Source of the DNA: Escherichia coli
Lineage (GTDB): Bacteria > Pseudomonadota > Gammaproteobacteria > Enterobacterales > Enterobacteriaceae
Length of the DNA: 64,000 nt
Assembly: GCF_044324785.1 (NCBI RefSeq)
Contig: NZ_CP172127.1
Strand: one strand, 5' to 3'
Shown here: positions 6,713 through 56,621 of the stretch, in pieces
How the letters are laid out: the number at the start of each line of letters is the position of its first letter
Numbering within the stretch: the stretch's first letter is position 1
Translations under genes and position numbers: made by a program
The notes under the pieces: generated by a model
What the model saw: only the letters and a program-made list of their open reading frames with translations
Databases searched by the model: none
What the model was told of the DNA's origin: nothing

Positions 6713-7225
6713 ATGCCAGGACAACCAATACCAAATGAGCTCAAAGAAAAAGGACTGATATGGCTTTTGCCACCATACTGTTGGTCACACCGTCAGATAG
6801 CCCGGAAGCTGAAGATCAGTGCCTCAGTTGTATCAAAATGGAGATGTGAGTTAGTGGAGCAAGGACTTTTACCTGAAAATGAAAAGATTACCTCCGTTGA
6901 TGTTGAAGACTGGACACCGGAGCGTCGATTCTCAGTTGTTCTTGAGACGGCTACGCTGTCAGAAATGGAACTTGCTGATTATTGCCGACGCATGGGATTG
7001 TTTGTTGAACAGGTTAAAGAATGGCGGGCTATCTCAATTCAGGCGCATGAAAAGAAATTGACGGAAAATATCCGAACAGACAGGGCATTGCGTGACGCAA
7101 AAAATAAGTTACGAGAACTGGAGAAAGAGCTTAAGCGCAAAGATAAAGCTCTGGCGGAAGCAGCTGCCCTGCTTATATTAAGGGAAAAGTTCAATGCCCT
7201 CTGGGACAACAGCGAGGAAGACTGA
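6713..7225 (+). CDS. IS3-family transposase OrfA (HTH plus leucine-zipper region)
   Basis: SD AAGGAG 6 nt before ATG 6713; C-terminal heptad-like LRELEKELKRKDKALAEAAALLILREKF. Confidence 0.6.
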   Translation: MPGQPIPNELKEKGLIWLLPPYCWSHRQIARKLKISASVVSKWRCELVEQGLLPENEKITSVDVEDWTPERRFSVVLETATLSEMELADYCRRMGLFVEQVKEWRAISIQAHEKKLTENIRTDRALRDAKNKLRELEKELKRKDKALAEAAALLILREKFNALWDNSEED

Positions 7226-8252
7226 CCCCTCTCCTGGAGCGGCATAAAATTATTTCTCTTGTCCGTGAGGCCGTCGCCAACGGCGCCCGGAAAGGTCAGG
7301 CTTGTAGGTGTATCGGTATTTCTATTCGGACACTTCAGCGCTGGACTAATGGCAACATCATCACCACGGACCGAAGATCCGATACTGTAAACAGCTCTCC
7401 CCGAAATAAGCTGTCAGAAGCGGAAAGATTGCGAATACTGGAGTTGTGCAACTCTCCAGAGTTTGCATCCTTGCCTCCAAATGTGATCGTACCAACTCTG
7501 GCAGACAGAGGTATTTATATTGCTTCTGAATCAAGTTTTTATCGTGTACTGAAATCAGCCAAGCAGTTGAAGAAACGATCCCGTGAATGCCAGTATAAAC
7601 TGGCCTGATGTACTCAGGGCCGTTGCACCGAATCAAGTCTGGAGTTGGGACATCAGCTATTTGCCGTCCTGGGTCAGAGGCCAGCATTTTTACCTCTATA
7701 TGATCGTCGATATTTACAGTCGCAAAATTATTGCTGCTGAGGTATTTGCCAGCGAATCTGGAAAACATGCAGCAGAACTACTCCAGCGTGCAGTATGGAA
7801 TGAAAAATGTTCATCCAACAATCTGGTACTCCATTCTGATAACGGTGGTCCCATGCGCAGTGACACGTTGTTGGCGAAAATGTATGCGCTTGGTGTGCTA
7901 AGTTCTTATTCCCGGCCAAGAGTCAGTAATGATAATCCTTACTCAGAATCTTTGTTCCGGACTCTCAAATATTGTCCCTGGTGGCCTGAGAACGGTTTTC
8001 GCACTATTGATGATGCCAGAGTATGGGTAAACCAGTTTTGTAAACTGGTACAACTTTGAACATAAGCACAGCGGGATCAAATACGTCACGCCAGCCGAGC
8101 GTCATCAAGGTAATGATATGAAAATACTGGCGGCCAGAAAAGCAGTATACCAGCTGGCACGCGAACAGCATCCTGAACGTTGGGGAAAGCATCTACGTAA
8201 CTGGGACTACATATCAGAAGTCTACCTGAATCCAGAAAAAGAGGCTGCATAA
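7222..8252 (+). pseudogene. IS3-family transposase OrfB (DDE integrase core), interrupted by extra frameshifts/stops
   Basis: Integrase-core sequence split over three frames (...CQYKLA stop; VWSWDISYLP...SDNGGPMRSDT...KYCPWWP; HSGIKYVTPAERH... ending 8252). Confidence 0.55.
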
Positions 8253-8295
8253 CGTAATTTTATTACAAAAGGCGACAACTACCTTGAAAAACGCC

Positions 8296-8329
8296 GTTAT
8301 TGAGTGATCTCCTTTCATGAAAATACGCA
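8296..8329. repeat. IS3-family right terminal inverted repeat (34 bp)
   Basis: Exact reverse complement of 6631-6664. Confidence 0.8.
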
Positions 8330-8866
8330 CCATGACCATACCCTCTGCAACCTGACCATCGTAGTCACGCAGCGTCAGTGAACCTCCGAACAACTGTTTT
8401 ACCCGGTACATCGCTGTTTCCGCTATCGAACGACGGTTATAATCTGTTGTCCATTTACACCGGGCATTACTTCCGGTCAGCCGCTGATTAGCCACTGCAC
8501 GGTTACGGTCTTCGTATTCACCGGGCTAGTAACCCGCACCTTTTCGGGAAGGGGTAAGCGCGCTGATTTTCTTACGCCTCAGTTCATCGTGACAGAGTCG
8601 GGGGTCGTAAGCCCCGTCTACCGCTGCAGCCATGATTTTTCTGTGAGTCTGTTGGAGAAGCCCCGGGAAGGCTTCTGAGTCCGTGACGTTGTTCAGCGAC
8701 AGGTCTGCACAGACAATTTCATGTGTGTTGCCATCAACAGACAGATGCGACGCCCCTCTTTGCCGTGCTTTTTGGCTTTCCTTTCGCCTTCCCCAAAGAC
8801 TTTTAGCCCGTTGGAATCAATCACGAGGTGTATGATTTCACCCCGGGTGGGGATTTATGTATAAGA
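8330..8866 (-). pseudogene. IS903-like (IS5-family) transposase remnant, C-terminal half only
   Basis: Minus-strand translation gives ...HLVIDSNGLKVFGEGE...THEIVCADLSLNNVTDSEAFPGLLQQTHRKI...RSIAETAMYRVKQLFGGSLTLRDYDGQVAEGM, recognisable as IS903-type transposase; in-frame stops present; cut by the IS3 TIR and lacking the N-terminal half and IS ends. Confidence 0.6.
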
Positions 8867-12918: not shown

Positions 12919-14451
12919 TCAGGTGCCGATTATGCCGCCGTCGGCTTTTACGATAACGACAGTTGAGGAGCGCGGACGACCAGCCTTATCGCCGTCAGGC
13001 CAGCTTGATACTGCCGTCGGATGCTGCGGATCGCTAAGCCCTTCGCTTGGCTCGCCAGGGTGCTGGATGTTAATAAACAGCGTCCGGTTATCCGGAGTGA
13101 ACGCGATGCCGGTGATTTCGCAGCCGCGCGGGCCGGTCAGGAAGCGGCGGAACTCATTGGTACCGGGGATCGTCGCCACCATCTGGTTGTTGCCCATGCC
13201 TTTGTAATCTTTAATATTTATGGTTGATGACGACACGTCGGTCTGGATCCATAGCACGCCGCGGTGATCAAAGCTCAGGCCATCGGCGCTGCCGAATTCC
13301 GCACCCTTCATGCTGCCTTTGGTTTCCAGTTTGTCTGTATCGGTGCGACCGCCCATCACAAGAATATCCCAGGCAAACTGCAGCGCGGTCGGGTCACCGT
13401 TATGCTCCAACCAGTGAATGATGTGGCCGTAAACGTTTTTGGCGCGCGGGTTGGCCGCATCCACTGGCGCTTTTCCTTCCTTACCGCGATCGCTGTTGTT
13501 GGTGAGCGTGCAGTAAACGCTGCCGGCGTGATATGGATCGACCGCAATCCACTCCGGGCGGTCCATTTTAGTGGCCCCCACGGCGTCTGCCGCCAGACGG
13601 GTTTTAATCAACAGGTCGCCCTGGTTTTCAAACCCTTTACTGGCGTCGAGCCCATTTTGTCCGAACACCAGCGGTAGCCACTCGCCTTTGCCGTCGTCGT
13701 TAAATTTCGCCACGTACAGAGTGCCTTTTTCCAGCAGGTGCATGTTGGCTTTGCGATCCTGCGGGTTGAATTTTCCTTCCGAGACAAATTTATATATGTA
13801 TTCGAATTTCTGGTCATCGCCCATATAGACCACAACGCGGTTATCCGGGGCAATTGTCACCGCTGCGCCTTCGTGTTTGATGCGACCAAGCGCGGTGTGC
13901 TTGCGCGGCACTGAATGCGGATCGTATGGATCGATTTCCACCACCCAGCCGAAGCGGTTCGGCTCGTTCGGCGTGGCGTCGACGCTGAACCTTTTATCCA
14001 CTTCGTTCCAGCGGTAAGAGTCGTCGCTCCCGCTGATACCGTAACGTTTTTCCAGCGGGTTCATCTCTGCTTTTTTTACGAAAATATCGGACCAGTTCTC
14101 TTCACACGTCAGATAGGTGCCCCACGGCGTAAATCCGTTGGCACAGTTCTGCATGGTGCCGAGAATGATTTCGCCTTTCGGATCGTCAACTGTTTGCATC
14201 AGTGGGTTATGCAGCGCCGGACCGGTGATTTTCATCGGCGTGTTAACGGTGATGCGGCGTGCGAACGATGACGGGCGCACCACTTCCCAGCCCAGGGGCA
14301 CTTTTTTTACTTCAATGACCGACACGCCCATCGCGTTCTGGCCTTTAAGAGCTTTATCGGCGCTCCAGTTGGCATCGCCATCTTTAAACAGTAGACCGTT
14401 ATCGATGTATTCATGGTTTATGGCAAGCAGGCCGTGATCGGAGCTGTTCCC
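12919..14451 (-). pseudogene. phoX: PhoX-family (DUF839-like) secreted phosphatase gene, 3' part, separated from its 5' part by the prophage
   Basis: Reading frame continues exactly from the fragment at 52793-53245 across the target-site duplication (...SLPQGGN | SSDHGLLAINHEY...); the first 16 codons of ORF 12919-14499 are phage-end derived. Confidence 0.65.
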
Positions 14452-14500
14452 TGATGCGCCGCGCGATAAATGCACTCTATCTTGTGCGATAAATGGCATC
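14452..14500. repeat. Prophage left terminus with two putative transposase-binding motifs
   Basis: GATAAATG at 14465-14472 and 14488-14495; mirrored at identical offsets at the right end. Confidence 0.6.
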
Positions 14501-14529: not shown

Positions 14530-15102
14530 TTACATTTCAGGTTGCGTTATGACAGTCCCAACAGGGTGGTAGCGGTAGATCGTTGACAGTCCAATATCAT
14601 AGATAATTGCCAGCCGCTTTCTGTCATACCCTTTCTGGAGCAATCTTGCGATCTGCTCATGCTGCTCCTTCGTCAGTTTCGGGCGACGTCCTCCAACTCT
14701 TCCTTGTGCTCGCGCAGCAGCCAGTCCTGCCAGCGTGCGCTCAACTATCAGTTCACGCTCCATTTCTGCCAGTGCACCCATCATATGAAAAAAGAACCTT
14801 CCCATCGGAGTGCTGGTATCGATTGAATCCGTCAGACTGCGAAAATTGACACCTTTTGCGCGTAGCTCTTCTGTGAGAGCAATGAGGTGTTTCATTCTTC
14901 TACCCAACCGATCCAGCTTCCAGACCACCAATGTATCCCCTCTTTTAAGGCACTTTAAAGCGCGTTTCAGGCCTGGTCGTTCCGACTTGGTTCCGCTCAT
15001 TTTGTCCTCAAAAATCTGTTCACATCCTGCGCACATTAATGCATTGCGTTGCAAATCTGTGTTTTGGTCATTTGTTGACACACGTATGTAGCCAATCAGC
15101 AT
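14530..15102 (-). CDS. pin: Site-specific DNA invertase, Hin/Gin/Pin serine recombinase family
   Basis: MLIGYIRVSTNDQNTDLQRNAL...GDTLVVWKLDRLGR...MGALAEMERELIVERT is the invertase catalytic domain plus C-terminal HTH; adjacent to tail-fibre cassettes. Confidence 0.9.
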   Translation of the reverse strand: MLIGYIRVSTNDQNTDLQRNALMCAGCEQIFEDKMSGTKSERPGLKRALKCLKRGDTLVVWKLDRLGRRMKHLIALTEELRAKGVNFRSLTDSIDTSTPMGRFFFHMMGALAEMERELIVERTLAGLAAARAQGRVGGRRPKLTKEQHEQIARLLQKGYDRKRLAIIYDIGLSTIYRYHPVGTVITQPEM

Positions 15103-15147
15103 TAAAAATACTCCCTTTTGAGTGGTTAAAGTACTGAGATAATGTGG

Positions 15148-15173
15148 GGAGGATTTGAGAGATAAACGTTGGT
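15148..15173. other. Putative invertase crossover site A (gix/pix-like), core AAACG-TT-GGTTT
   Basis: Core AAACGTTGGTTT at 15155-15166 at the start of the conserved ~200-bp fibre box; identical inverted core at 16779-16790. Confidence 0.45.
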
Positions 15174-15686
15174 TTAGGAGAAGGCTCGGCGCTACCCGTT
15201 GGTGTGCCTGTTCCGTGGCCCACCGCCACACCGCCAGCAGGCTGGTTAAAGTGCGACGGGCGCGCCTTTACAAAAGAACAATATCCTGTTCTGGCCAGAG
15301 TCTACCCGACCCTCCGTCTTCCCGATTTACGCGGTGAGTTTATCCGTGGATGGGACGACGGGCGCAAAGTTGATACAGGACGTAAGTTGCTGTCCGCACA
15401 AGGGGCAACGCTGTTAAGAACAGCAATGCTGGATTATTATAACCAGGACACTACGGGAACCTCGGGGATAGTCGGCATGGGATTCAACAATGAAGATTCC
15501 ATTACAGACCTTCGTGAGGGCAGCTTTAAAATGCCGGACGGGACAACATTCAGCGATCCTGTCGTGGCAATGTCAGACAATGGTATGCAGGCTACTATTC
15601 TGACCTCTATCAGAAGCGGGTATGCGAAGGGTATCACTGTCAGACCCCGTAGCATTGCACTTAATTACATTGTGAGGGCAGTTTAA
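15150..15686 (+). CDS. Tail-fibre C-terminal cassette 3 (start-less alternative variable domain)
   Basis: Frame opens after TGA at 15147-15149 with no ATG; encodes the conserved box GEGSALPVGVPVPWPTATPPAGWL...RGEFIRGWDDGRK then a unique C-terminus ending NYIVRAV. Confidence 0.7.
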
Positions 15687-16300
15687 TGAGTAACACTGCA
15701 GTTCTGGATGAAAACGGTATCGCCACTGTAGCGGGCGAGATCACTGTATATCACTATGACGAGGAAACCCGGGAATACACCTCATCCTCTGTGGAGTATC
15801 TCGCCCTTGGGGTGGGTACTCCGGCACATTCGTGCGCCGATGCACCGCCGGAGGCAATTTCGGGTTACGTGGTTTGCCGGACTGCCACGCTGAACGGGTG
15901 GGAGCATGTGCCTGATCACCGCGGCGAGACGGTATACAGCACGGAGAACGGTAACCCCGTTCTGATTACCCAACCGGGTGATTACCCGGCGGACACCACC
16001 ACAAAACAGCCGGCCACGCCATGGGATACCTGGAACGGTGAGGCGTGGGTAACCGATACTGAACGGCAGCGAGCCGCAGAACTGGAGGTTGCCAGACAGC
16101 AACGCCAGCAACGGGTGAAACAGGCGATGGCGTCCGTCGATCTTATCAACCTCAAACTGCGTGCTGGTCGCAGTCTGACACCAGAAGAAACGGCAAAACT
16201 GAACGCCGTGCTGGATTATATCGACGAGCTGAACGCACTGGATATCAGCACGGCACCTGAAATCAGCTGGCCGGAAGCGCCACTGGCACTTGCCAGCTGA
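15686..16300 (+). CDS. Tail fibre assembly protein (Tfa/U-like)
   Basis: ATG overlaps cassette-3 stop (TAATG); 204 aa, in the position and orientation of a Tfa chaperone for cassette 3. Confidence 0.65.
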   Translation: MSNTAVLDENGIATVAGEITVYHYDEETREYTSSSVEYLALGVGTPAHSCADAPPEAISGYVVCRTATLNGWEHVPDHRGETVYSTENGNPVLITQPGDYPADTTTKQPATPWDTWNGEAWVTDTERQRAAELEVARQQRQQRVKQAMASVDLINLKLRAGRSLTPEETAKLNAVLDYIDELNALDISTAPEISWPEAPLALAS

Positions 16301-16306
16301 ACGGTA

Positions 16307-16780
16307 TCACGCCGCCCTCACGATATAGTTAAACGCGATATTGCGGGGGCGGGTTATGTTAAAGAATGCTCCGTTTAATTCGGCTTTTGCGCGACTGTTT
16401 GTTCCACCCAGAATTGCGTACCACAAATAATCGCTACGGTAATTCCCCGCAAACACCTTATCGCCGCCATAGTCAATATTATTTCCGTTACTCATGTACG
16501 AGATATCCAGCGAAGAATCGTTATCGTCATGACCGCCGACCAGTGTACCTTTCTGCCATGAAAGCAACTTACGCCCCTCGTCAATCTTGCGCCCGTCGTC
16601 CCATCCACGGATAAACTCACCGCGTAAATCGGGAAGACGGAGGGTCGGGTAGACTCTGGCCAGAACAGGATATTGTTCTTTGGTGAACGTAGCTCCGTTG
16701 CACTGTAACCAGCCTGCTGGCGGTGTGGCGGTGGGCCACGGAACAGGCACACCAACAGGCAATGCAGAGCCTTCCCCCAA
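16307..16780 (-). CDS. Tail-fibre C-terminal cassette 2 (unfused alternative variable domain, TTG-initiated frame)
   Basis: Begins with the same conserved box as cassettes 1 and 3 but has a different distal sequence; lies directly after the main fibre stop in +1 frame. Confidence 0.55.
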   Translation of the reverse strand: MGEGSALPVGVPVPWPTATPPAGWLQCNGATFTKEQYPVLARVYPTLRLPDLRGEFIRGWDDGRKIDEGRKLLSWQKGTLVGGHDDNDSSLDISYMSNGNNIDYGGDKVFAGNYRSDYLWYAILGGTNSRAKAELNGAFFNITRPRNIAFNYIVRAA

Positions 16781-16798
16781 ACCAACGTTTTTATGCGG
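16773..16798. other. Putative invertase crossover site B (inverted relative to site A)
   Basis: + strand AAACCAACGTTT at 16779-16790 is the reverse complement of the site A core. Confidence 0.45.
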
Positions 16799-19306: not shown

Positions 19307-20390
19307 TCATGTTAAGTGTGATCGCCGTACAGTTTGCCCATTCGTTTTCTGCCACCACCCTCAGTGCCGGTGTCACCAGTTCAACCTGGTACACCCCGGA
19401 AACGGACAATGCACTGATAATCTGGCTGGGGACAATATCACGCCCCAGCGTGGCGGCACGTGATGCCACCCAGTTCTGTATGGCGCTGTTAGCGGCATCT
19501 TTTACAGACCTGGCATCCTGATCACGATAGATCGTAATCCTGGCTTCAATGGTGTAATCCACCTTCACTGGTGTTTTAGCCCGCACTGTATCAGTGAGTG
19601 GCCTGACTTTCTCATCAGAGCAGAAACTCTCTACCAGCGTGAGAACACCGCCGTCCGGCAGACCGGTACTGAGCAGCGGATACAGATCTACGGTCCCGGG
19701 AACCGGGGAAAGCACAGCAACATCGACAATGTTGGGATGGGCCTGCATGGCATGAAAGCGGTATGCGCCACGGCTTCCGGCATTGGTGAATGACTCCGGG
19801 GCCAGCCTGATACGCTCCCGGAGCCTGTCATCGTCTTCCTGTTCTGAACCGCCGGAACTGGCCGTCAGATTGCTCACCAGCAGGTCGACGTTATCAATCT
19901 CATCGAGTAACTGACTGACCTGCGCAGGTTGCCAGCCGTTACCAGCGGTACCGGGTTCGGTACAGGTGGACGTGACATTGACCAGCAGCAATCCGGCCTT
20001 CAGTACCACATCTGTATCGGTGGCAAAAATAACGCTGTCGGAAGCGCTGACGCGGGTGCCTGCCGGGATCAGCACATCAATGGTCAGTGCCTCATCCACA
20101 GAGAACTGAAGTGTGGTGGTGGCAGGCTGCGCGGCAAGGCGGTATACACCAACCAGTTCTCCGAGGTAATCAATCATCGGCTCTCGTGAAAAGGCGACCA
20201 GATTCTGCTTTGCTGCCTCCTGTACCGCAACCCTGACCAGCATTTCGCGATAGGCCCACAGATCAATCAGCAGACGTTCTGCCTGTGCCGGGTACAGCGT
20301 TTTGCCGGTATCCGCTTCATACTTCGCAATCATTTCTGCCGTGATTTTGTCGGCATCGCGTTCAATAAAATCGGGTTCTGTCAGCGCCAT
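19287..20390 (-). CDS. Baseplate protein J-like
   Basis: 367 aa, conserved order W-J-I-fibre. Confidence 0.8.
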   Translation of the reverse strand: MALTEPDFIERDADKITAEMIAKYEADTGKTLYPAQAERLLIDLWAYREMLVRVAVQEAAKQNLVAFSREPMIDYLGELVGVYRLAAQPATTTLQFSVDEALTIDVLIPAGTRVSASDSVIFATDTDVVLKAGLLLVNVTSTCTEPGTAGNGWQPAQVSQLLDEIDNVDLLVSNLTASSGGSEQEDDDRLRERIRLAPESFTNAGSRGAYRFHAMQAHPNIVDVAVLSPVPGTVDLYPLLSTGLPDGGVLTLVESFCSDEKVRPLTDTVRAKTPVKVDYTIEARITIYRDQDARSVKDAANSAIQNWVASRAATLGRDIVPSQIISALSVSGVYQVELVTPALRVVAENEWANCTAITLNMSGVSDD

Positions 20391-20728
20391 AGCAACTCCT
20401 GAGTCCGGGTCTGTCCGTCTGAGCCTTTCCAGCTCACCCGGAGCGTAAGATGTTCGCCGTCGACGGCGGGTTTAACTGACATAAGCTGGCAGCGGGGCTC
20501 CCAGCGTCGGATGGCATCGACGGATTCGCGCACCACATGCGGAATGGCCCGGTCTACAGGCCAGTCGATATAAAGATGCAGATTGCTGCCGAACTCCGGG
20601 CGATGCGGGTCGCTGCCGCGGGGAGTCCGCAGGATAATTTGAATCGCCTGCCGGATATCATCCAGCCCCCGGACAATTTCGCCGGGAGCCTGCAGGGTCG
20701 GTTGCCAGAATACTGAGGTTGTTTTCAT
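20381..20728 (-). CDS. Baseplate protein W-like (gp25/lysozyme-like fold family)
   Basis: 115 aa; context between spike V and J. Confidence 0.75.
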   Translation of the reverse strand: MKTTSVFWQPTLQAPGEIVRGLDDIRQAIQIILRTPRGSDPHRPEFGSNLHLYIDWPVDRAIPHVVRESVDAIRRWEPRCQLMSVKPAVDGEHLTLRVSWKGSDGQTRTQELLWR

Positions 20729-45108: not shown

Positions 45109-46878
45109 ATGAATGCTGCCCTGACTGAACGACTGGTTTATGTCGCCCGCGCGGCACGTGACGCGGGGCATGGTAAACGCGGCGCAGTATACGACGCTGC
45201 CTGTGCTGAACTTGGCATGTCCCGCGCCACTCTGCTGCGCAGGCTGAAGGAGGTATCTGTGACTGATAAACGCAAAAAACGCGCCGATGCCGGGCGCAGC
45301 GCCCTGACCCGCGACGAAGCCGCGCTGATATCTGCCACACTGCGTGAGGCCACCCGCAAGAACGGTAAGCGTCTCTATTCCATCGCGGATGCAGTGGAAA
45401 CCCTGCGGGCTAACGGCTTTATATCCGCAGGCAGAACAGATGAAACCACCGGTGAGTTTTTCCCGTTGTCCGAAGATGCCATCAGCCGAGCCCTGCGTAA
45501 CTATGGCCTGCACCCGGAACAACTGGATGCCCCTGCGCCGCATACCGAAGTGGCCAGTCTGCATCCCAATCATGTCTGGCAGATTGACGCCTCACTCTGC
45601 ACGCTTTACTACCTGAGCAATGGACATAAAGGGCTGCAGGTGATGGACAGCGCGAAGTTCTACAAGAACAAGCCCGCTAACCTTGCCCGTATCGCCAGTG
45701 ACCGCGTGTGGAGTTACGAGATTACCGACCATGCCAGCGGCTGGATTTACGTTGAGTATGTGACGGGCGCGGAATCAGGTGAGAACCTGTGTTCTGTGCT
45801 TATCAACGCCATGCAGGAGCGTGGCGGCGCAGACGTGCTGCACGGTGTGCCGAAAATACTCTATCTCGACCCCGGCTCGGCAAACACCGCGGGTATGACG
45901 AAAAACATGTGCCGCTCACTGGGCATCGACCTGATAGCGCACAAGCCGCATAACGCCCGCGCCACCGGACAGGTGGAAAAGGCGCGGGACATTATCGAAC
46001 GCAAGCTGGAGCCGGGTCTGAAGTTCCGGCCGGTTCACAGTCTGGAAGAACTCAACGCGCTGGCCGCGAAATGGCGCAGCCACTTTAACGCCACGGCTGT
46101 TCACAGCCGCCACGGTAAAACCCGCACGGATATCTGGCTGAAGATTACTGCTGAGCAGCTGAAAAAAGCGCCTTCCGTTGAGGTATGTCGTGAACTGGCT
46201 GTGGCGGCACCAGAACTCCGCAAAGTCACGCCAAAACTTCGTGTCTCGTTCCGGGGCACTGAATTTGACGTATCAACGGTACCGGGCGTACTGGTTGGTG
46301 AAAAACTGATGATTACCCGTAACCCGTGGCGCAGCGATGTGGCACAGGTGGTTCTGACCGGTGAGGACGGCCACGAGACGTTCTTCCTGGTCGAAGAGGT
46401 CAGAAAGAACGAGTTTGGCTTTGCTGAAGGCGCGGCGGTATTTGGCGAAAGTTACAAAGCCCTGCCGGAAACCCCGGCGCAGATGGCGGCAAAAGAAACC
46501 GAAGCGCTGGTCACCGGTACAGACAACGCCGCAGATGCAGCTGCCGCACGCAAGGCGAAGGCGCTGCCGTTCGGCGGGCGGCTTGACCCGTATAAACATA
46601 TCGACGACACCACACTTCCGGCCTATATGCCGAAGCGTGGTCAGGCCTCTGACGTACGCGGGCCGCGCACTGAACAACGTCCCATGACTTATGTGGAGGC
46701 CGCGAAAGCCCTGCGCGATAAGTTCAGCGCCAACGGCTTTACCTGGACGCTGGAACATTACCGCCAGTTAACGGCACAGTATCCGGACGGCGTACCGGAA
46801 GCCGCACTGGATGAAGTCATGGCCACGCTGACCACGCCGGCCCGCAGCAGCGTTATCAGTATTGTTAACGGCAACTGA
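45109..46878 (+). CDS. Mu-type DDE transposase (A protein)
   Basis: 589 aa with integrase-core region (HVWQIDASL...) followed by the B-like ATPase gene. Confidence 0.8.
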   Translation: MNAALTERLVYVARAARDAGHGKRGAVYDAACAELGMSRATLLRRLKEVSVTDKRKKRADAGRSALTRDEAALISATLREATRKNGKRLYSIADAVETLRANGFISAGRTDETTGEFFPLSEDAISRALRNYGLHPEQLDAPAPHTEVASLHPNHVWQIDASLCTLYYLSNGHKGLQVMDSAKFYKNKPANLARIASDRVWSYEITDHASGWIYVEYVTGAESGENLCSVLINAMQERGGADVLHGVPKILYLDPGSANTAGMTKNMCRSLGIDLIAHKPHNARATGQVEKARDIIERKLEPGLKFRPVHSLEELNALAAKWRSHFNATAVHSRHGKTRTDIWLKITAEQLKKAPSVEVCRELAVAAPELRKVTPKLRVSFRGTEFDVSTVPGVLVGEKLMITRNPWRSDVAQVVLTGEDGHETFFLVEEVRKNEFGFAEGAAVFGESYKALPETPAQMAAKETEALVTGTDNAADAAAARKAKALPFGGRLDPYKHIDDTTLPAYMPKRGQASDVRGPRTEQRPMTYVEAAKALRDKFSANGFTWTLEHYRQLTAQYPDGVPEAALDEVMATLTTPARSSVISIVNGN

Positions 46879-50872: not shown

Positions 50873-51314
50873 ACAACGTCTTATCCAGCTCATTCATATT
50901 GCCCGTAATGAACTGGGTATGGATGAAGACACCTACCGCCAGATGTTACAGGGGCTGACCGGTAAAGCCTCAACCAAAGGAATGGATACCACACAACTAA
51001 ACTGCGTGCTGGAATCCATGAAAAGGAAAGGCTTTCGCGTTAAGCCTGCCGGAAAAGCCAGCTCCGGTTTACCGCTGGATAACCATCCGCAGTCCAGGAA
51101 AATCCGTGCGCTATGGCTTGAAATGGCTGCTGCCGGCATTGTTCGTGACCGTTCAGAAAATGCATTAGCGCGGTGGATCAAGCGGGAAACGGGCATCAGC
51201 GCCCTGCGCTGGCTCAGTACTGAACAGGCAAGCAGTGTTATTGAGAAACTGAAGAAGTGGCAGCGCAGAGCTGCGGGAGTCAAACATGAGCGACCTGAAT
51301 CAGTTTCGAAGTAA
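50862..51314 (+). CDS. gemA: GemA-like regulatory protein (Mu gp16 family)
   Basis: SD AGGAG before ATG; position immediately before Mor; size ~150 aa. Confidence 0.6.
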   Translation: MMTKQRLIQLIHIARNELGMDEDTYRQMLQGLTGKASTKGMDTTQLNCVLESMKRKGFRVKPAGKASSGLPLDNHPQSRKIRALWLEMAAAGIVRDRSENALARWIKRETGISALRWLSTEQASSVIEKLKKWQRRAAGVKHERPESVSK

Positions 51315-51684
51315 AGGGCCGGAACTCCTGGTGGAGCTGGCACAGCATACCTCTGAGACCGTTCGCGAGATTATTGATATTGAGCCCGCAATTGCCGACC
51401 AGATTGGTCAGGCCGTCGCGAACCGAATGATGCAGGTCTGGGGCGGGCAAAACGTTTATTTCCCGATGGGCATGGTATGGAAGGTCAGTCAGCGCGACCG
51501 GGAAATCTTCAGGGAGTTTAACGGACGCAACCACCACGAACTGGCCCGCAAGTTTGGTGTTTCGCTTCAGTGGGTCTACAGCGTGGTTAAGCGGGTCAGA
51601 AAAGAAGAACTGGATCGGATGCAGGGCAGGTTGTTTGATGAAGATCTGCCAGAGGAGACGAAAGACGTTAACAAATCCAGATAA
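51286..51684 (+). CDS. mor: Mor-like middle-operon transcriptional activator
   Basis: C-terminal ...VYFPMG...REIFREFNGRNHHELARKFGVSLQWVYSVVKR matches the Mor/C family HTH. Confidence 0.7.
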   Translation: MSDLNQFRSKGPELLVELAQHTSETVREIIDIEPAIADQIGQAVANRMMQVWGGQNVYFPMGMVWKVSQRDREIFREFNGRNHHELARKFGVSLQWVYSVVKRVRKEELDRMQGRLFDEDLPEETKDVNKSR

Positions 51685-51730
51685 TTCCTGCTTGTTAAAG
51701 TCCTTTCAAAAATCTCCTTATTGTATAAAA

Positions 51731-51760
51731 GCACGGTAGACCCCTTACCGTGCTTTTTTT
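51731..51760 (+). terminator. Rho-independent terminator after mor
   Basis: Perfect 8-bp stem GCACGGTA/TACCGTGC, 7-nt loop, followed by TTTTTTT (51754-51760). Confidence 0.65.
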
Positions 51761-51798
51761 ATGCTCTCTCTTTAGTATTCAGGATGCAGGGAGAAAAT

Positions 51799-52431
51799 AT
51801 GTTTGACGTTTCGTTGTTAAATCTGCCATGGGCAACACTGGTGACCCTGACCAGTGGCTATATTGGGTATTTTATTGCGAATGTGGGACTGAAGGATCAC
51901 CACAAGCCCATTGAGGTGACTTTTTCTTCGCTGATTTTTGGCCTGACAGCAATGATGGCTTACCAGGCTGTTATGTGGGCAGGTCTGAATGCCTGGCTGG
52001 CAACACCACCAGCACTTCTGTGTGCCGTTACATGCGGTGCGTGGTGGCGCAGGTACGGTCGCAAATGGATGTACAGATTACTGTGGAATAATGATATTTC
52101 ATGGTCTGACGATACCAGCTCAGCATGGCAGGCAATGTTTGATCAAACAGGCTTCAGCGTTACCGAGGTCAGAGTGATTCTTCGCGATGGTTCCGGTATG
52201 ATGTCACGGCTGCCAGGGAACTTTGAAGAGTGGCCTAACGGTCCGTTTACCCTGGGGAATAAAGGCGATATGGTTCTTTACGTCACGCACAGCAGCCCTT
52301 CAGGCAGTAACGAATGGGAAGAGTATAAAGGCGTGGTTGATAAGTACTGGGGAGCTCTGGCAACCTATATTCCAGCAGATCAGATTGCCAGAGTGGAGAT
52401 CAGGCGCGTTCGTGCAACGAACGATGAATGA
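51799..52431 (+). CDS. Membrane-anchored protein (211 aa), candidate moron / superinfection-exclusion factor
   Basis: Own SD (GGGAGA) after the mor terminator; N-terminal TM helices (WATLVTLTSGYIGYFIANVGL, FSSLIFGLTAMMAYQAVMWAGL) plus soluble C-terminal domain; last gene before the prophage right end. Confidence 0.55.
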   Translation: MFDVSLLNLPWATLVTLTSGYIGYFIANVGLKDHHKPIEVTFSSLIFGLTAMMAYQAVMWAGLNAWLATPPALLCAVTCGAWWRRYGRKWMYRLLWNNDISWSDDTSSAWQAMFDQTGFSVTEVRVILRDGSGMMSRLPGNFEEWPNGPFTLGNKGDMVLYVTHSSPSGSNEWEEYKGVVDKYWGALATYIPADQIARVEIRRVRATNDE

Positions 52432-52744
52432 TGTTTATTTTTTCCCTGGGGCAGGGGCTGCCGGCATAGTGGTTTTATTGGCAGAGGAAGACGATTCTCC
52501 TTTTCTACCGGAATCGCGCTCGAACGTCACGATGTGCTTGCTTTTGGGCTTTTCTGAGTAATCCAGGCTATCATGCTTATTGTTTTGAGTAGTCATTGGA
52601 ATCATCCTTTTTGTTGCGGGTCATGTTTCAGCAAACTCGATTCTAAGTTGCCAGGAAGGATGATTTCAATGCCCGACTTATCTATCGTATAGCGGAAAAG
52701 AATTTCAGTTCTGTTCACCAGAACCCATGTTAACCCACTCCAAT

Positions 52745-52792
52745 TCGTTATTTATCTCACGGATCCCCCTTCATTTATCTCATGTCTGATCA
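52745..52792. repeat. Prophage right terminus with two putative transposase-binding motifs (inverted relative to left end)
   Basis: Reverse complement reads TGATCAGACATGAGATAAATGAAGGGGGATCCGTGAGATAAATAACG; motifs at + 52772-52779 and 52749-52756. Confidence 0.6.
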
Positions 52793-53245
52793 GTTCCCGC
52801 CCTGCGGCAGGCTAAACCACGCCATGCCGTCGTGGTGCATCCCGGCCTGCGCCGCCTGTTCTTCCGTGGTGTTGCTACCGTCGGTTTTAAAAACCGGCAG
52901 ATTTCCGGCAATCCCGGTGGCGTCGCCCCATTTGTAGAAGGGCTTCGCGATGTATCCTTCCGGCACGATAACGGTATCTTCCGTGGAAACCGGCAGGCTG
53001 GTGAAACCGAGCGTCGTCGCTTTGCCGAGGTTACCGCTTGCTTTGGAGACCACTTTCGCCAGCGCGTTTTCCTGTTTCAGCAGAAATGGGAACGCTGCCG
53101 CGGCACCGGCGACCGTGCCTGCCTGTAACAGACGGCGGCGTGACAAATAGACTTCCGCCACCTGCGAAAACGCGCGGTTATCGCTCGGGTTACTGATTTC
53201 TTCACTATGCTCACGTTTGAATAAAGTTTTTAACGGTCTGCCCAT
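52793..53245 (-). pseudogene. phoX: PhoX-family secreted phosphatase gene, 5' part (Tat signal), separated from its 3' part by the prophage
   Basis: Twin-arginine motif SRRRLLQAGTVAGAAAAFPF; frame terminated by TGA supplied by the prophage terminal TGATCA. Confidence 0.65.
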
Positions 53246-53887: not shown

Positions 53888-54624
<737 letters not shown>

Positions 54625-54630
54625 CTAGCT

Positions 54631-54667
<37 letters not shown>

Positions 54668-55006
54668 TAATTACACTGTGGGTTGACGCCGGAAGAATCA
54701 GAGAACAGATACCGTTCTTACTGTAAAACGTGGCTAATATTAATTGAGCACTGCAGTGTTCAGAGCACAAAGAAGAAAAAAGATGTGTGCGAATGCCTGT
54801 AATGTGTTAAAAGAATGTTCCGCGTTTCCGGTACGCTTTTCGTAACTAACAATGCAGGGTGACGTAACGCTGGTTGTGCCGGAAACGCGTCCCTCCCCCT
54901 ATCTTTCCTGTTTGGATTTGCCCCTATATTTCTGGATTATCCGACAAAACCGGCGTGAAGTATTACTCTCGTCGCCCAGCACCATAAGGATAACGCCCAT
55001 AAAATC

Positions 55007-55372
55007 ATGAAACTTTTCTTCCAGATTGGATACAATCAGGCCGTATCCCGTATTACAGGCTTATCACGTGTGACAGTCAGTCTCTGGGTGTGTTCAGGAA
55101 CATTCCCTGAAATGTCAACCCGGCCTCCAGAGCGAGGACTTCTGGCCCCATGGAGGGAGTGGTTAAAAGAGCAACGAGAAAGTGGTAACTTCGGCGCGTG
55201 GCTGCAAGGATGGCAGCTGATGCTGCGGCTATATGTGAGGCAATCGGCAGTCGCTGGAATAATGGGGGTTGTCGAAAGTCATGTAAATAGACTAAAAATG
55301 CTGAAAGGCCAGATGTATGGTCGAGCCGGATTTGAACTACTCAGACAGAGGGTCATGAGTCCACTGGCATGA
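55007..55372 (+). CDS. AlpA-like HTH regulator (tentative)
   Basis: ...AVSRITGLSRVTVSLWVCSGTFP... resembles the AlpA/Xis-type HTH. Confidence 0.35.
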   Translation: MKLFFQIGYNQAVSRITGLSRVTVSLWVCSGTFPEMSTRPPERGLLAPWREWLKEQRESGNFGAWLQGWQLMLRLYVRQSAVAGIMGVVESHVNRLKMLKGQMYGRAGFELLRQRVMSPLA

Positions 55373-55426
55373 AAATCTCCATCCAGGTTGCGTAAGAGCC
55401 ACTTTTCATCCGTCGTCGATATCTGG

Positions 55427-56621
<1,195 letters not shown>

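Follow-up and report, generated by a model that had tools for sequence, protein, structure and literature searches.

A divergent DUF6338-type membrane-protein gene and its convergent proline-tailed small partner at the right end of a BcepMu-like prophage of Escherichia coli

The stretch of DNA analysed here (the window) consists of 64,000 nucleotides (nt) of Escherichia coli (contig NZ_CP172127.1 of assembly GCF_044324785.1) and carries a BcepMu-like (Bcepmuvirus) transposable prophage of 38,341 bp (14452-52792), at the right end of which two genes face each other: a plus-strand gene encoding a membrane protein and a minus-strand gene encoding a small hydrophilic protein. The two genes form a cassette of about 950 nt, inserted after mor and ahead of the terminal repeats of the phage, the presumed transposase-binding sites (Table 1). 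The membrane-protein gene had been singled out in a reading of the letters alone (the sequence-only reading) as an independently expressed gene placed after the mor terminator, of the kind that often encodes superinfection-exclusion, abortive-infection or conversion factors; the convergent 53-residue gene is absent from that reading. The coding sequence of the membrane protein is identical in RefSeq (WP_000460689.1, 'hypothetical protein'), and a literature search on this accession found no paper.

Table 1. Features of the cassette and of the adjoining prophage end (positions in the window)
Feature	Position	Strand	Remarks
mor (Mor/C-family transcription activator), last conserved gene of the early/middle operon	51286..51684	+	phrog_532, late transcriptional activator, E 2e-45; RefSeq: Mor family protein
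Intrinsic terminator, hairpin and T-run	51727..51760	+	Scan and folding; position kept in relatives, with compensatory stem changes
Candidate weak promoter inside the terminator	51737..51765	+	-35 TAGACC 51737-51742, 17-nt spacer, -10 TATGCT 51760-51765; putative, sub-threshold in the scan
Shine-Dalgarno sequence GGAG of the membrane-protein gene	51790..51793	+	5 nt spacing to ATG 51799
Membrane-protein gene, 210 residues	51799..52431	+	Three predicted transmembrane helices (N-out, C-in) and a predicted cytoplasmic Sm/SH3-like small beta-barrel; divergent DUF6338-type
Small gene, 53 residues	52435..52596	-	Hydrophilic, predicted disordered, C-terminus PAAPAPGKK; RefSeq WP_001571575.1; phrog_15726; stop 3 nt from the membrane-protein gene stop
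Sigma-70-type promoter of the small gene, TTGAAA-18-TAGAAT	52640..52669	-	10/12 matches, promoter scan
Shine-Dalgarno sequence AAGGA of the small gene	52605..52609	-	8 nt ahead of the ATG; kept in enterobacterial relatives
16-nt inverted repeat CATTGGAATCATCCTT / AAGGATGATTTCAATG	52594..52671 (arms 52594-52609, 52656-52671)	none	Arms over the Shine-Dalgarno sequence and ATG of the small gene and over the -35 and spacer of its promoter
Prophage right terminus	52750..52792	none	Two direct ATTTATCTCA repeats (presumed transposase-binding sites) and terminal ...TGATCA
Target-site duplication GTTCCC	52793..52798; second copy 14446-14451, beside the left end 14452		6-bp direct repeat, both ends

The AlphaFold2 model of the membrane protein, built from 27 homologues (predicted local distance difference test score, pLDDT, 82), contains helices at residues 11-27, 37-60 and 65-97, followed by a beta domain at residues 119-205. 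The hydropathy profile likewise delineates three hydrophobic spans and, since the third of them is followed by five lysine or arginine residues, the protein would adopt an N-out, C-in topology that leaves the beta domain in the cytoplasm. These predictions bear out the N-terminal transmembrane helices and the soluble C-terminal domain which the sequence-only reading had recognised. The best matches of the barrel among solved structures are Sm/LSm proteins, and not Cap15; the neighbours of the model in the AlphaFold database are uncharacterised, a few of them being labelled S-2TMbeta (one, in UniProt) or DUF421, and holins are found among the weak structural matches. Class I holins have the same three transmembrane helices and the same N-out, C-in topology, but they count about 90-125 residues, whereas the present protein is about twice that size and includes a 110-residue beta-barrel domain; furthermore, its gene lies outside the lysis cassette and is absent from most relatives.

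The homology and structure searches which the sequence-only reading had called for were fruitful as regards the barrel and a divergent DUF6338-type assignment, and yielded neither a PADLOC or NCBIfam match nor an informative PHROG match. Indeed, the membrane protein matches no Pfam family (even at E <= 10) and no NCBIfam or PADLOC family (E <= 1), its PHROG family (PHROG 12870) is annotated 'unknown function', and searches of Pfam, NCBIfam, PADLOC and the PDB sequences with both cassette proteins returned nothing informative. Among 1.84 billion representative proteins, on the other hand, a profile search assembled 530 clusters at 50% identity, nearly all of about 200-220 residues, with homologues in Enterobacterales, Bradyrhizobium, sphingomonads and metagenomes. 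DUF6338 (PF19865) is matched at E <= 1e-3 by 7 of 27 and by 4 of 69 homologues, the best value being 1.4e-5; precomputed PF19865 matches exist for the homologues P0050-P0054 and P0060, among which P0052 is the NCBI 'DUF6338 family protein', and homologues sharing 55% identity with the E. coli protein match the same family. Judged by transitivity through these homologues, the membrane protein belongs to a divergent branch related to DUF6338, and with its 210 residues and three predicted transmembrane helices it has the size and type of that family (integral membrane proteins of about 160-220 residues). The conserved positions of the family are chiefly glycine, tyrosine, tryptophan and proline, together with one aspartate; because glycine, aromatic residues and proline dominate, a non-enzymatic protein is likely, and this conservation points to a structural or pore-type role, not to an enzymatic one. 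One family member gives a weak Phage_holin_9 match. A scan of the genome collection with a narrower family alignment recovered 6 loci.

The partner of the membrane protein is the 53-residue product of the convergent gene (MTTQNNKHDSLDYSEKPKSKHIVTFERDSGRKGESSSSANKTTMPAAPAPGKK). A convergent open reading frame (ORF) of 33-59 residues, ending between -46 and +44 nt from the stop of the membrane-protein gene, accompanies the latter at 26 of the 27 distinct loci having downstream sequence, L044 being the sole locus devoid of it. Furthermore, a search for the strict tail pattern over 1.25 kb of downstream sequence at 28 loci gave 24 proline-tailed ORFs on the convergent strand and 0 on the same strand. 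The substitutions at codon positions 1/2/3 amount to 1619/1273/2101 overall and to 9/7/24 in a close pair, and it is this third-position excess, combined with the strand specificity, which argues that the 53-residue ORF is coding. One might suppose that the ORF is not a gene, its conservation being that of cis-acting DNA at a transposon end and the membrane-protein gene a solitary moron: the ORF does lie within the terminal 360 bp, which are non-coding in BcepMu, and AlphaFold2 attributes no structure to its product. We nevertheless consider this very improbable, as it accommodates neither the substitution pattern nor the restriction to one strand, and the partner is retained where the Mu-type end is missing (HK97-like phages, plasmid, chromosomal islands), while similar small proteins with a proline-basic tail have been detected by mass spectrometry in Pseudomonas stutzeri.

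The small proteins contain about 10% hydrophobic residues, and the proline fraction reaches 0.32 in their last 12 residues, versus 0.10 elsewhere. The tails usually terminate in lysine or arginine, as in PPPPKK, PPPSPKKK, PPAPLGKK and PPPAPRKK. The enterobacterial members have the motifs D[YF]SE.PK and V.F[ER] in common, and those from outside the enterobacteria carry a repeated [YFH]xPxx[TS] motif (14 matches, versus 3.3 +/- 1.8 in shuffled sequences). The partner genes may also be found in tandem, with two copies in sphingomonads and five on a Rhodobacteraceae plasmid. On the latter (CP081163.1; L078, 3643-4417), the five ORFs, all unannotated, possess tails PPPPK[KR] or PPPKPKR and are convergent to the family member, and they are followed by an ImmA/IrrE gene.

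A comparable arrangement has been described in P. stutzeri ATCC 14405. According to this proteogenomic study (PMC10433244), three novel proline-rich small proteins are encoded directly after the DUF6338 gene Pstu14405_RS12030, on the same strand, and were identified by 44-114 spectral matches, with a coverage of 98-100% for two of the three; two of them, MVSSPGSGVQTNGANPPAPANVRPAMAPTAPPPPKK and MTKKIGGNPGSPVQGGVNKETTSQRPSAPPSAPPPPPKKGG, end in PPPPKK and PPPPPKKGG, respectively. The authors regarded the small proteins as species-specific, raised an antimicrobial-peptide-like role for them and noted that DUF6338 is also reported in biosynthetic gene clusters (PMC10433244). The P. stutzeri locus resembles the phage pairs by a DUF6338 protein of about 200 residues with an integral-membrane N-terminus and by neighbouring small proteins with proline-basic tails; it differs from the E. 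coli cassette in having three same-strand small genes instead of a single convergent one. A C-terminal signature and a neighbour in common suggest that the two represent the same association. Since the small genes are co-directional with the DUF6338 gene in P. stutzeri, the link between the partners is probably of a protein-protein nature and not antisense alone.

The small proteins might themselves be the active products, for example proline-rich peptides with a target in the cell or in a competitor, and their immunity, export or anchoring would then fall to the membrane protein. The tandem paralogues of the sphingomonads (two), of the Rhodobacteraceae plasmid (five) and of P. stutzeri (three) do resemble bacteriocin or peptide-precursor arrays, and both the abundance of the P. 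stutzeri proteins and the suggestions of the authors cited above would fit. This explanation seems to us quite unlikely, for the small proteins lack any signal or leader sequence, neither a modification enzyme nor an ABC exporter is encoded beside the cassette at the loci examined, a lone three-helix protein without ATPase would make an unlikely exporter, and the enterobacterial form has a single small gene. To our knowledge, moreover, the two motifs of the enterobacterial core are unlike those of known proline-rich antimicrobial peptides.

As regards expression, the strong terminator which the sequence-only reading had placed at 51731-51760, closing the operon after mor, is confirmed by scan and by folding. 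These positions match the core stem and the T-run of a hairpin (51727-51757) of 13 pairs, 5 of them G-C, followed by TTTTTTT, the core stem being GCACGGTA/TACCGTGC (terminator scan), and the 101 nt from 51700 to 51800 fold with an energy of -28.5 kcal/mol (z = -4.25, 0/200 shuffles being equally stable). A hairpin and T-run with differing stem sequences occupy the equivalent site in seven locus types from other enterobacteria. Owing to an upstream A-run, the terminator could be weakly bidirectional. The Shine-Dalgarno sequence attributed to the following gene is also present, ahead of the start codon used in RefSeq, but the independent expression of this gene is not demonstrated: the promoter scan revealed no plus-strand sigma-70 promoter for it, the distance from the T-run to the ATG is only 35 nt, the weak candidate which overlaps the terminator conforms to the consensus at 8 of 12 positions, and several relatives are devoid of the intervening terminator. 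TGGAT[AT] or TAGACC does precede TAT[TG]CT by 17-18 nt in 4 of the 7 upstream types. From these signals, the membrane-protein gene appears to be shielded from the early operon by the terminator and to possess a promoter of its own that is weak at best.

Two observations concern the same interval. A hairpin is predicted at 51765-51794, in which CUCUCUC (51765-51771) is paired with the GGGAGA Shine-Dalgarno region of the membrane-protein gene; its conservation in the relatives is not clear, and it could limit the translation of this gene. At four loci (L012 7690-7977, from Serratia marcescens, L044, L045 and L047), an additional ORF of about 95 residues, which matches no PHROG or PADLOC family, is found between mor and the membrane-protein gene, and no terminator is present.

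The signals of the small gene are of another quality. Its promoter and Shine-Dalgarno sequence are conserved in the alignment of the Klebsiella, Serratia, Citrobacter and Salmonella relatives, the scan recovers the promoter independently in Serratia and Klebsiella, and transcription from it would be directed inward from the prophage end. The scan detected no terminator-like site on either strand, whether within the two genes or in the gap separating them, and the convergent transcripts should therefore overlap. The arms of the inverted repeat are the only two exact copies of this sequence in the window; both are retained in Serratia with a matching base change and are partly retained in other relatives, and the repeat could act as a pair of operators or, in read-through transcripts, form an RNA hairpin. 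In the L064 locus, a CI-like S24 repressor gene precedes the small gene on the same strand, with 3 nt between them, a position which implies that the small gene is expressed in the lysogen. With its strong and conserved promoter, the small gene is more likely than the membrane-protein gene to be the lysogen-expressed part of the pair.

The distribution of the cassette is that of an optional cargo. Among the 5,426 complete E. coli genomes of the survey set, 639 contain this mor and 118 contain the region 51765-52792, so that its presence varies among close relatives while the genes and sites on either side are conserved. In the E. coli strains p4A and EcPF7, and in PhiKM, the phage end is located about 160 nt past mor, and in BcepMu 364 nt past it, with no intervening gene; these cargo-free relatives share the same termini. 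KP12 and E. coli strain 571 harbour a different gene, of 109 residues, at the post-mor site. Since the membrane-protein gene is absent from relatives including BcepMu, PhiKM and KP12, it is dispensable for virion production, in keeping with the accessory, non-virion nature implied for it in the sequence-only reading; such a distribution is what a moron or a conversion-type gene would show. When 50,697 phage records were searched with tblastn, a single distant homologue came up, at the end of its record. A 113-residue ORF of PhiKM (20200-20544) was considered as an alternative post-mor cargo and discarded, because the alignment of the termini shows it to lie past the end of the phage, the assembly being partial and joined.

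Elsewhere, the pair travels together among temperate phages, plasmids and genomic islands. It follows mor at a prophage end in Serratia, Klebsiella and others; in an HK97-like phage (L018) it is inserted between the head-tail connector and head-closure genes, and in other phages it is found after a head-morphogenesis gene (L074), ahead of the large terminase gene (L077) or after the tape measure gene (L062). In the last case it adjoins a complete PDC-M48A+B candidate defence system (6879-8493, PADLOC E 5e-157 and 4e-52), at the end of the prophage tail module. The pair also occurs in a Bradyrhizobium island (L007), on a sphingomonad chromosome beside ImmA/IrrE and DUF4411 genes (L010) and on the plasmid already mentioned, beside an ImmA/IrrE gene (L078).

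In all these phage contexts the membrane-protein gene runs in the direction of the adjacent lytic operon, and at L012, L065 and L074 its gap to, or overlap with, the upstream gene is at most 23 nt, no terminator being found in L012. The membrane protein might then be an accessory of the lytic cycle, made by read-through of early or late transcription and acting in exclusion, in lysis timing (in a holin/antiholin-like manner) or in membrane remodelling, and the small gene, which at L064 would be co-transcribed with the repressor gene, would merely silence it in the lysogen. Such a role is in our opinion unlikely: a strong terminator stands directly upstream of the gene in the E. coli type, the prophage already possesses a separate holin and endolysin cassette, the pair is also found without nearby phage genes (Bradyrhizobium island, sphingomonad chromosomes, Rhodobacteraceae plasmid), and BcepMu, PhiKM and most E. 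coli relatives dispense with it.

Several known systems offer points of comparison. The S-2TMbeta effectors (Cap15 of CBASS and OptE of Panoptes) act by oligomerising and disrupting the inner membrane, and OptE, a membrane effector made of transmembrane helices and a beta-barrel, is kept inactive by a constitutively made ligand (PMC12657218). They constitute the closest working analogy for the membrane protein, which like them would fuse N-terminal transmembrane helices to a small cytoplasmic beta-barrel; membership of their family fails on profile and gene neighbourhood. They have two transmembrane helices instead of three, and their ligand is a nucleotide, the candidate ligand here being the small protein. 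The Cap15/S-2TMbeta profiles give no PADLOC match at E <= 1, and Pfam S_2TMBeta matches none of the 27 or 69 family members at E <= 0.1. No CD-NTase or mCpol synthase or cyclase lies beside the pair, whose neighbours are mor and the prophage end, and none was seen in the related loci examined.

Phage morons and prophage membrane exclusion proteins, such as lambda RexB, P22 SieA, T4 Imm and HK97 gp15, are a second term of comparison. The cassette resembles them in being an optional insertion among conserved phage genes and in carrying the membrane protein of a temperate phage. As to signals, a terminator stands upstream of it and the small gene has a strong promoter of its own, the membrane-protein gene having only its sub-threshold candidate. 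The position of the small gene downstream of the CI-like repressor gene at L064 recalls that of lambda rexAB. There is, however, no sequence or profile similarity to RexB, SieA, Imm or HK97 gp15, and the cassette is a convergent two-gene unit where those are single genes. A third comparison is provided by the prophage type I toxin-antitoxin pairs with convergent 3'-overlapping transcripts, such as txpA/RatA and bsrG/SR4 of B. subtilis. The likeness is confined to the gene layout: a membrane-protein gene facing a convergent partner, the absence of a terminator between the two, the stronger promoter of the partner and the prophage location. In contrast, the type I toxins are peptides of less than about 60 residues and not a 210-residue protein with a folded cytoplasmic domain, the partner here encodes a conserved protein, and the partners of DUF6338 in P. 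stutzeri are co-directional.

The model we tentatively put forward, as possible though somewhat short of probable, is that of a membrane effector protecting the lysogen and controlled both by the small protein and by an antisense transcript. In the lysogen, the small gene would be transcribed constitutively, and its transcript would run antisense across the membrane-protein gene, thereby holding the expression of the latter low. The PPxP-K/R tail of the small protein would bind the Sm/SH3-like barrel and maintain the membrane protein in an inactive state. When this balance is upset, for example by the infection of another phage or the loss of the element, the membrane protein would oligomerise through its Gly/Tyr-rich helices and perturb the inner membrane, the outcome being phage exclusion, abortive infection or an addiction-like effect favouring the prophage. 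The role in superinfection exclusion or abortive infection which the sequence-only reading had suggested for such genes is a plausible guess.

Several observations weigh against this model of a controlled, lysogen-protective effector. No defence-family match was obtained in PADLOC, NCBIfam or Pfam, and the defence genes found beside the cassette at three or four loci are anecdotal, no statistic being attached to them. The invariable co-orientation with lytic operons would suit a lytic-cycle role equally. The same-strand layout of P. stutzeri implies that antisense control cannot be the universal link between the partners. Finally, when a fusion of both proteins was modelled by AlphaFold2 from 21 paired sequences, the small protein was given a pLDDT of 34-38, with only the proline tail (residues 283-290) reaching at least 50.

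A bolder generalisation, which we consider doubtful, would make of the pair a widespread and hitherto undescribed two-component module, in which one to five dedicated microproteins are recognised, through their PPxP-K/R tails, by the cytoplasmic Sm/SH3-like barrel of a DUF6338-type inner-membrane protein. It would operate as a membrane switch for abortive infection, exclusion or addiction in phages, plasmids and islands, and the antisense layer would belong to the phage versions.

The prophage that carries the pair is bounded as follows. The transposase (45109-46878) shares 68% identity with BcepMu gp09 and 98% with the transposase of Escherichia phage PhiKM; the late genes are on the minus strand and the early genes on the plus strand, the last two of the latter being gemA and mor. 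The holin and endolysin/transglycosylase genes are located about 11 kb from the membrane-protein gene, at the start of the late operon. The prophage right end, which had been recognised in the sequence-only reading, is fixed at about 52793 by the arrest of homology among E. coli genomes with differing flanks (yecR, yeiB, tnaB, rfaH, rstB), by a terminus ...ATTTATCTCA..ATTTATCTCATGTCTGATCA that can be aligned to those of BcepMu and Serratia and by the target-site duplication; the membrane-protein gene ends about 360 bp short of 52792. An inverted-repeat search for the left end was without result, and comparison with strain KS21 set it at 14452. An Rfam search of 51500-53000 detected no known RNA.

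Other observations touch the element and its surroundings. On the minus strand, the prophage splits a host ORF (12919-14451 and 52793-53245) whose N-terminus resembles a twin-arginine signal (SRRRLLQAG) and for which the NCBIfam search gave no name. In the asymptomatic-bacteriuria strain E. coli ABU 83972 (L071, NC_017631.1, ~1804489-1804572), the same prophage adjoins a truncated histidine kinase gene next to rstA, presumably an interrupted rstB. The copy of E. coli FORC_031 (L001) retains mor, the membrane-protein gene and the small gene; between its DUF3102 gene and its late-early genes, those for the transposase and the transposition ATPase are lacking. Near the left end (14530-16790), a gene for a Gin-like recombinase adjoins tail-fibre and tail-fibre-assembly genes that face in opposite directions and contain internal repeats, an arrangement that resembles the invertible host-range segment of Mu. 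The terminal ~145 bp (52639-52783) are present at ~90% identity, with no annotated feature, on about 105 E. coli plasmids, mostly of 165-290 kb, which may carry solitary remnants of a BcepMu-like end. Just beyond the prophage, 53888-56475 contains fragments of an IS3-family element and one further ORF, which we take from its N-terminus to be an IS5-type transposase.

In conclusion, the pairing of the membrane protein with proline-tailed microproteins is the notable result of this analysis, no description of it having been found in the family libraries or the literature searched. The pair is present in about 2% of the complete E. coli genomes (118/5,426) and in many prophages of Klebsiella, Salmonella, Serratia, Citrobacter and Proteus, and two 'hypothetical' genes thereby gain a testable role. 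A conserved pairing would give the DUF6338 family and the proline-rich microproteins of P. stutzeri a common context. If the pair is indeed an exclusion, abortive-infection or addiction device, its mechanism would be one in which a microprotein, and not a nucleotide, controls a membrane effector, and the optional-cargo sites of transposable phages may be a source of further such modules.

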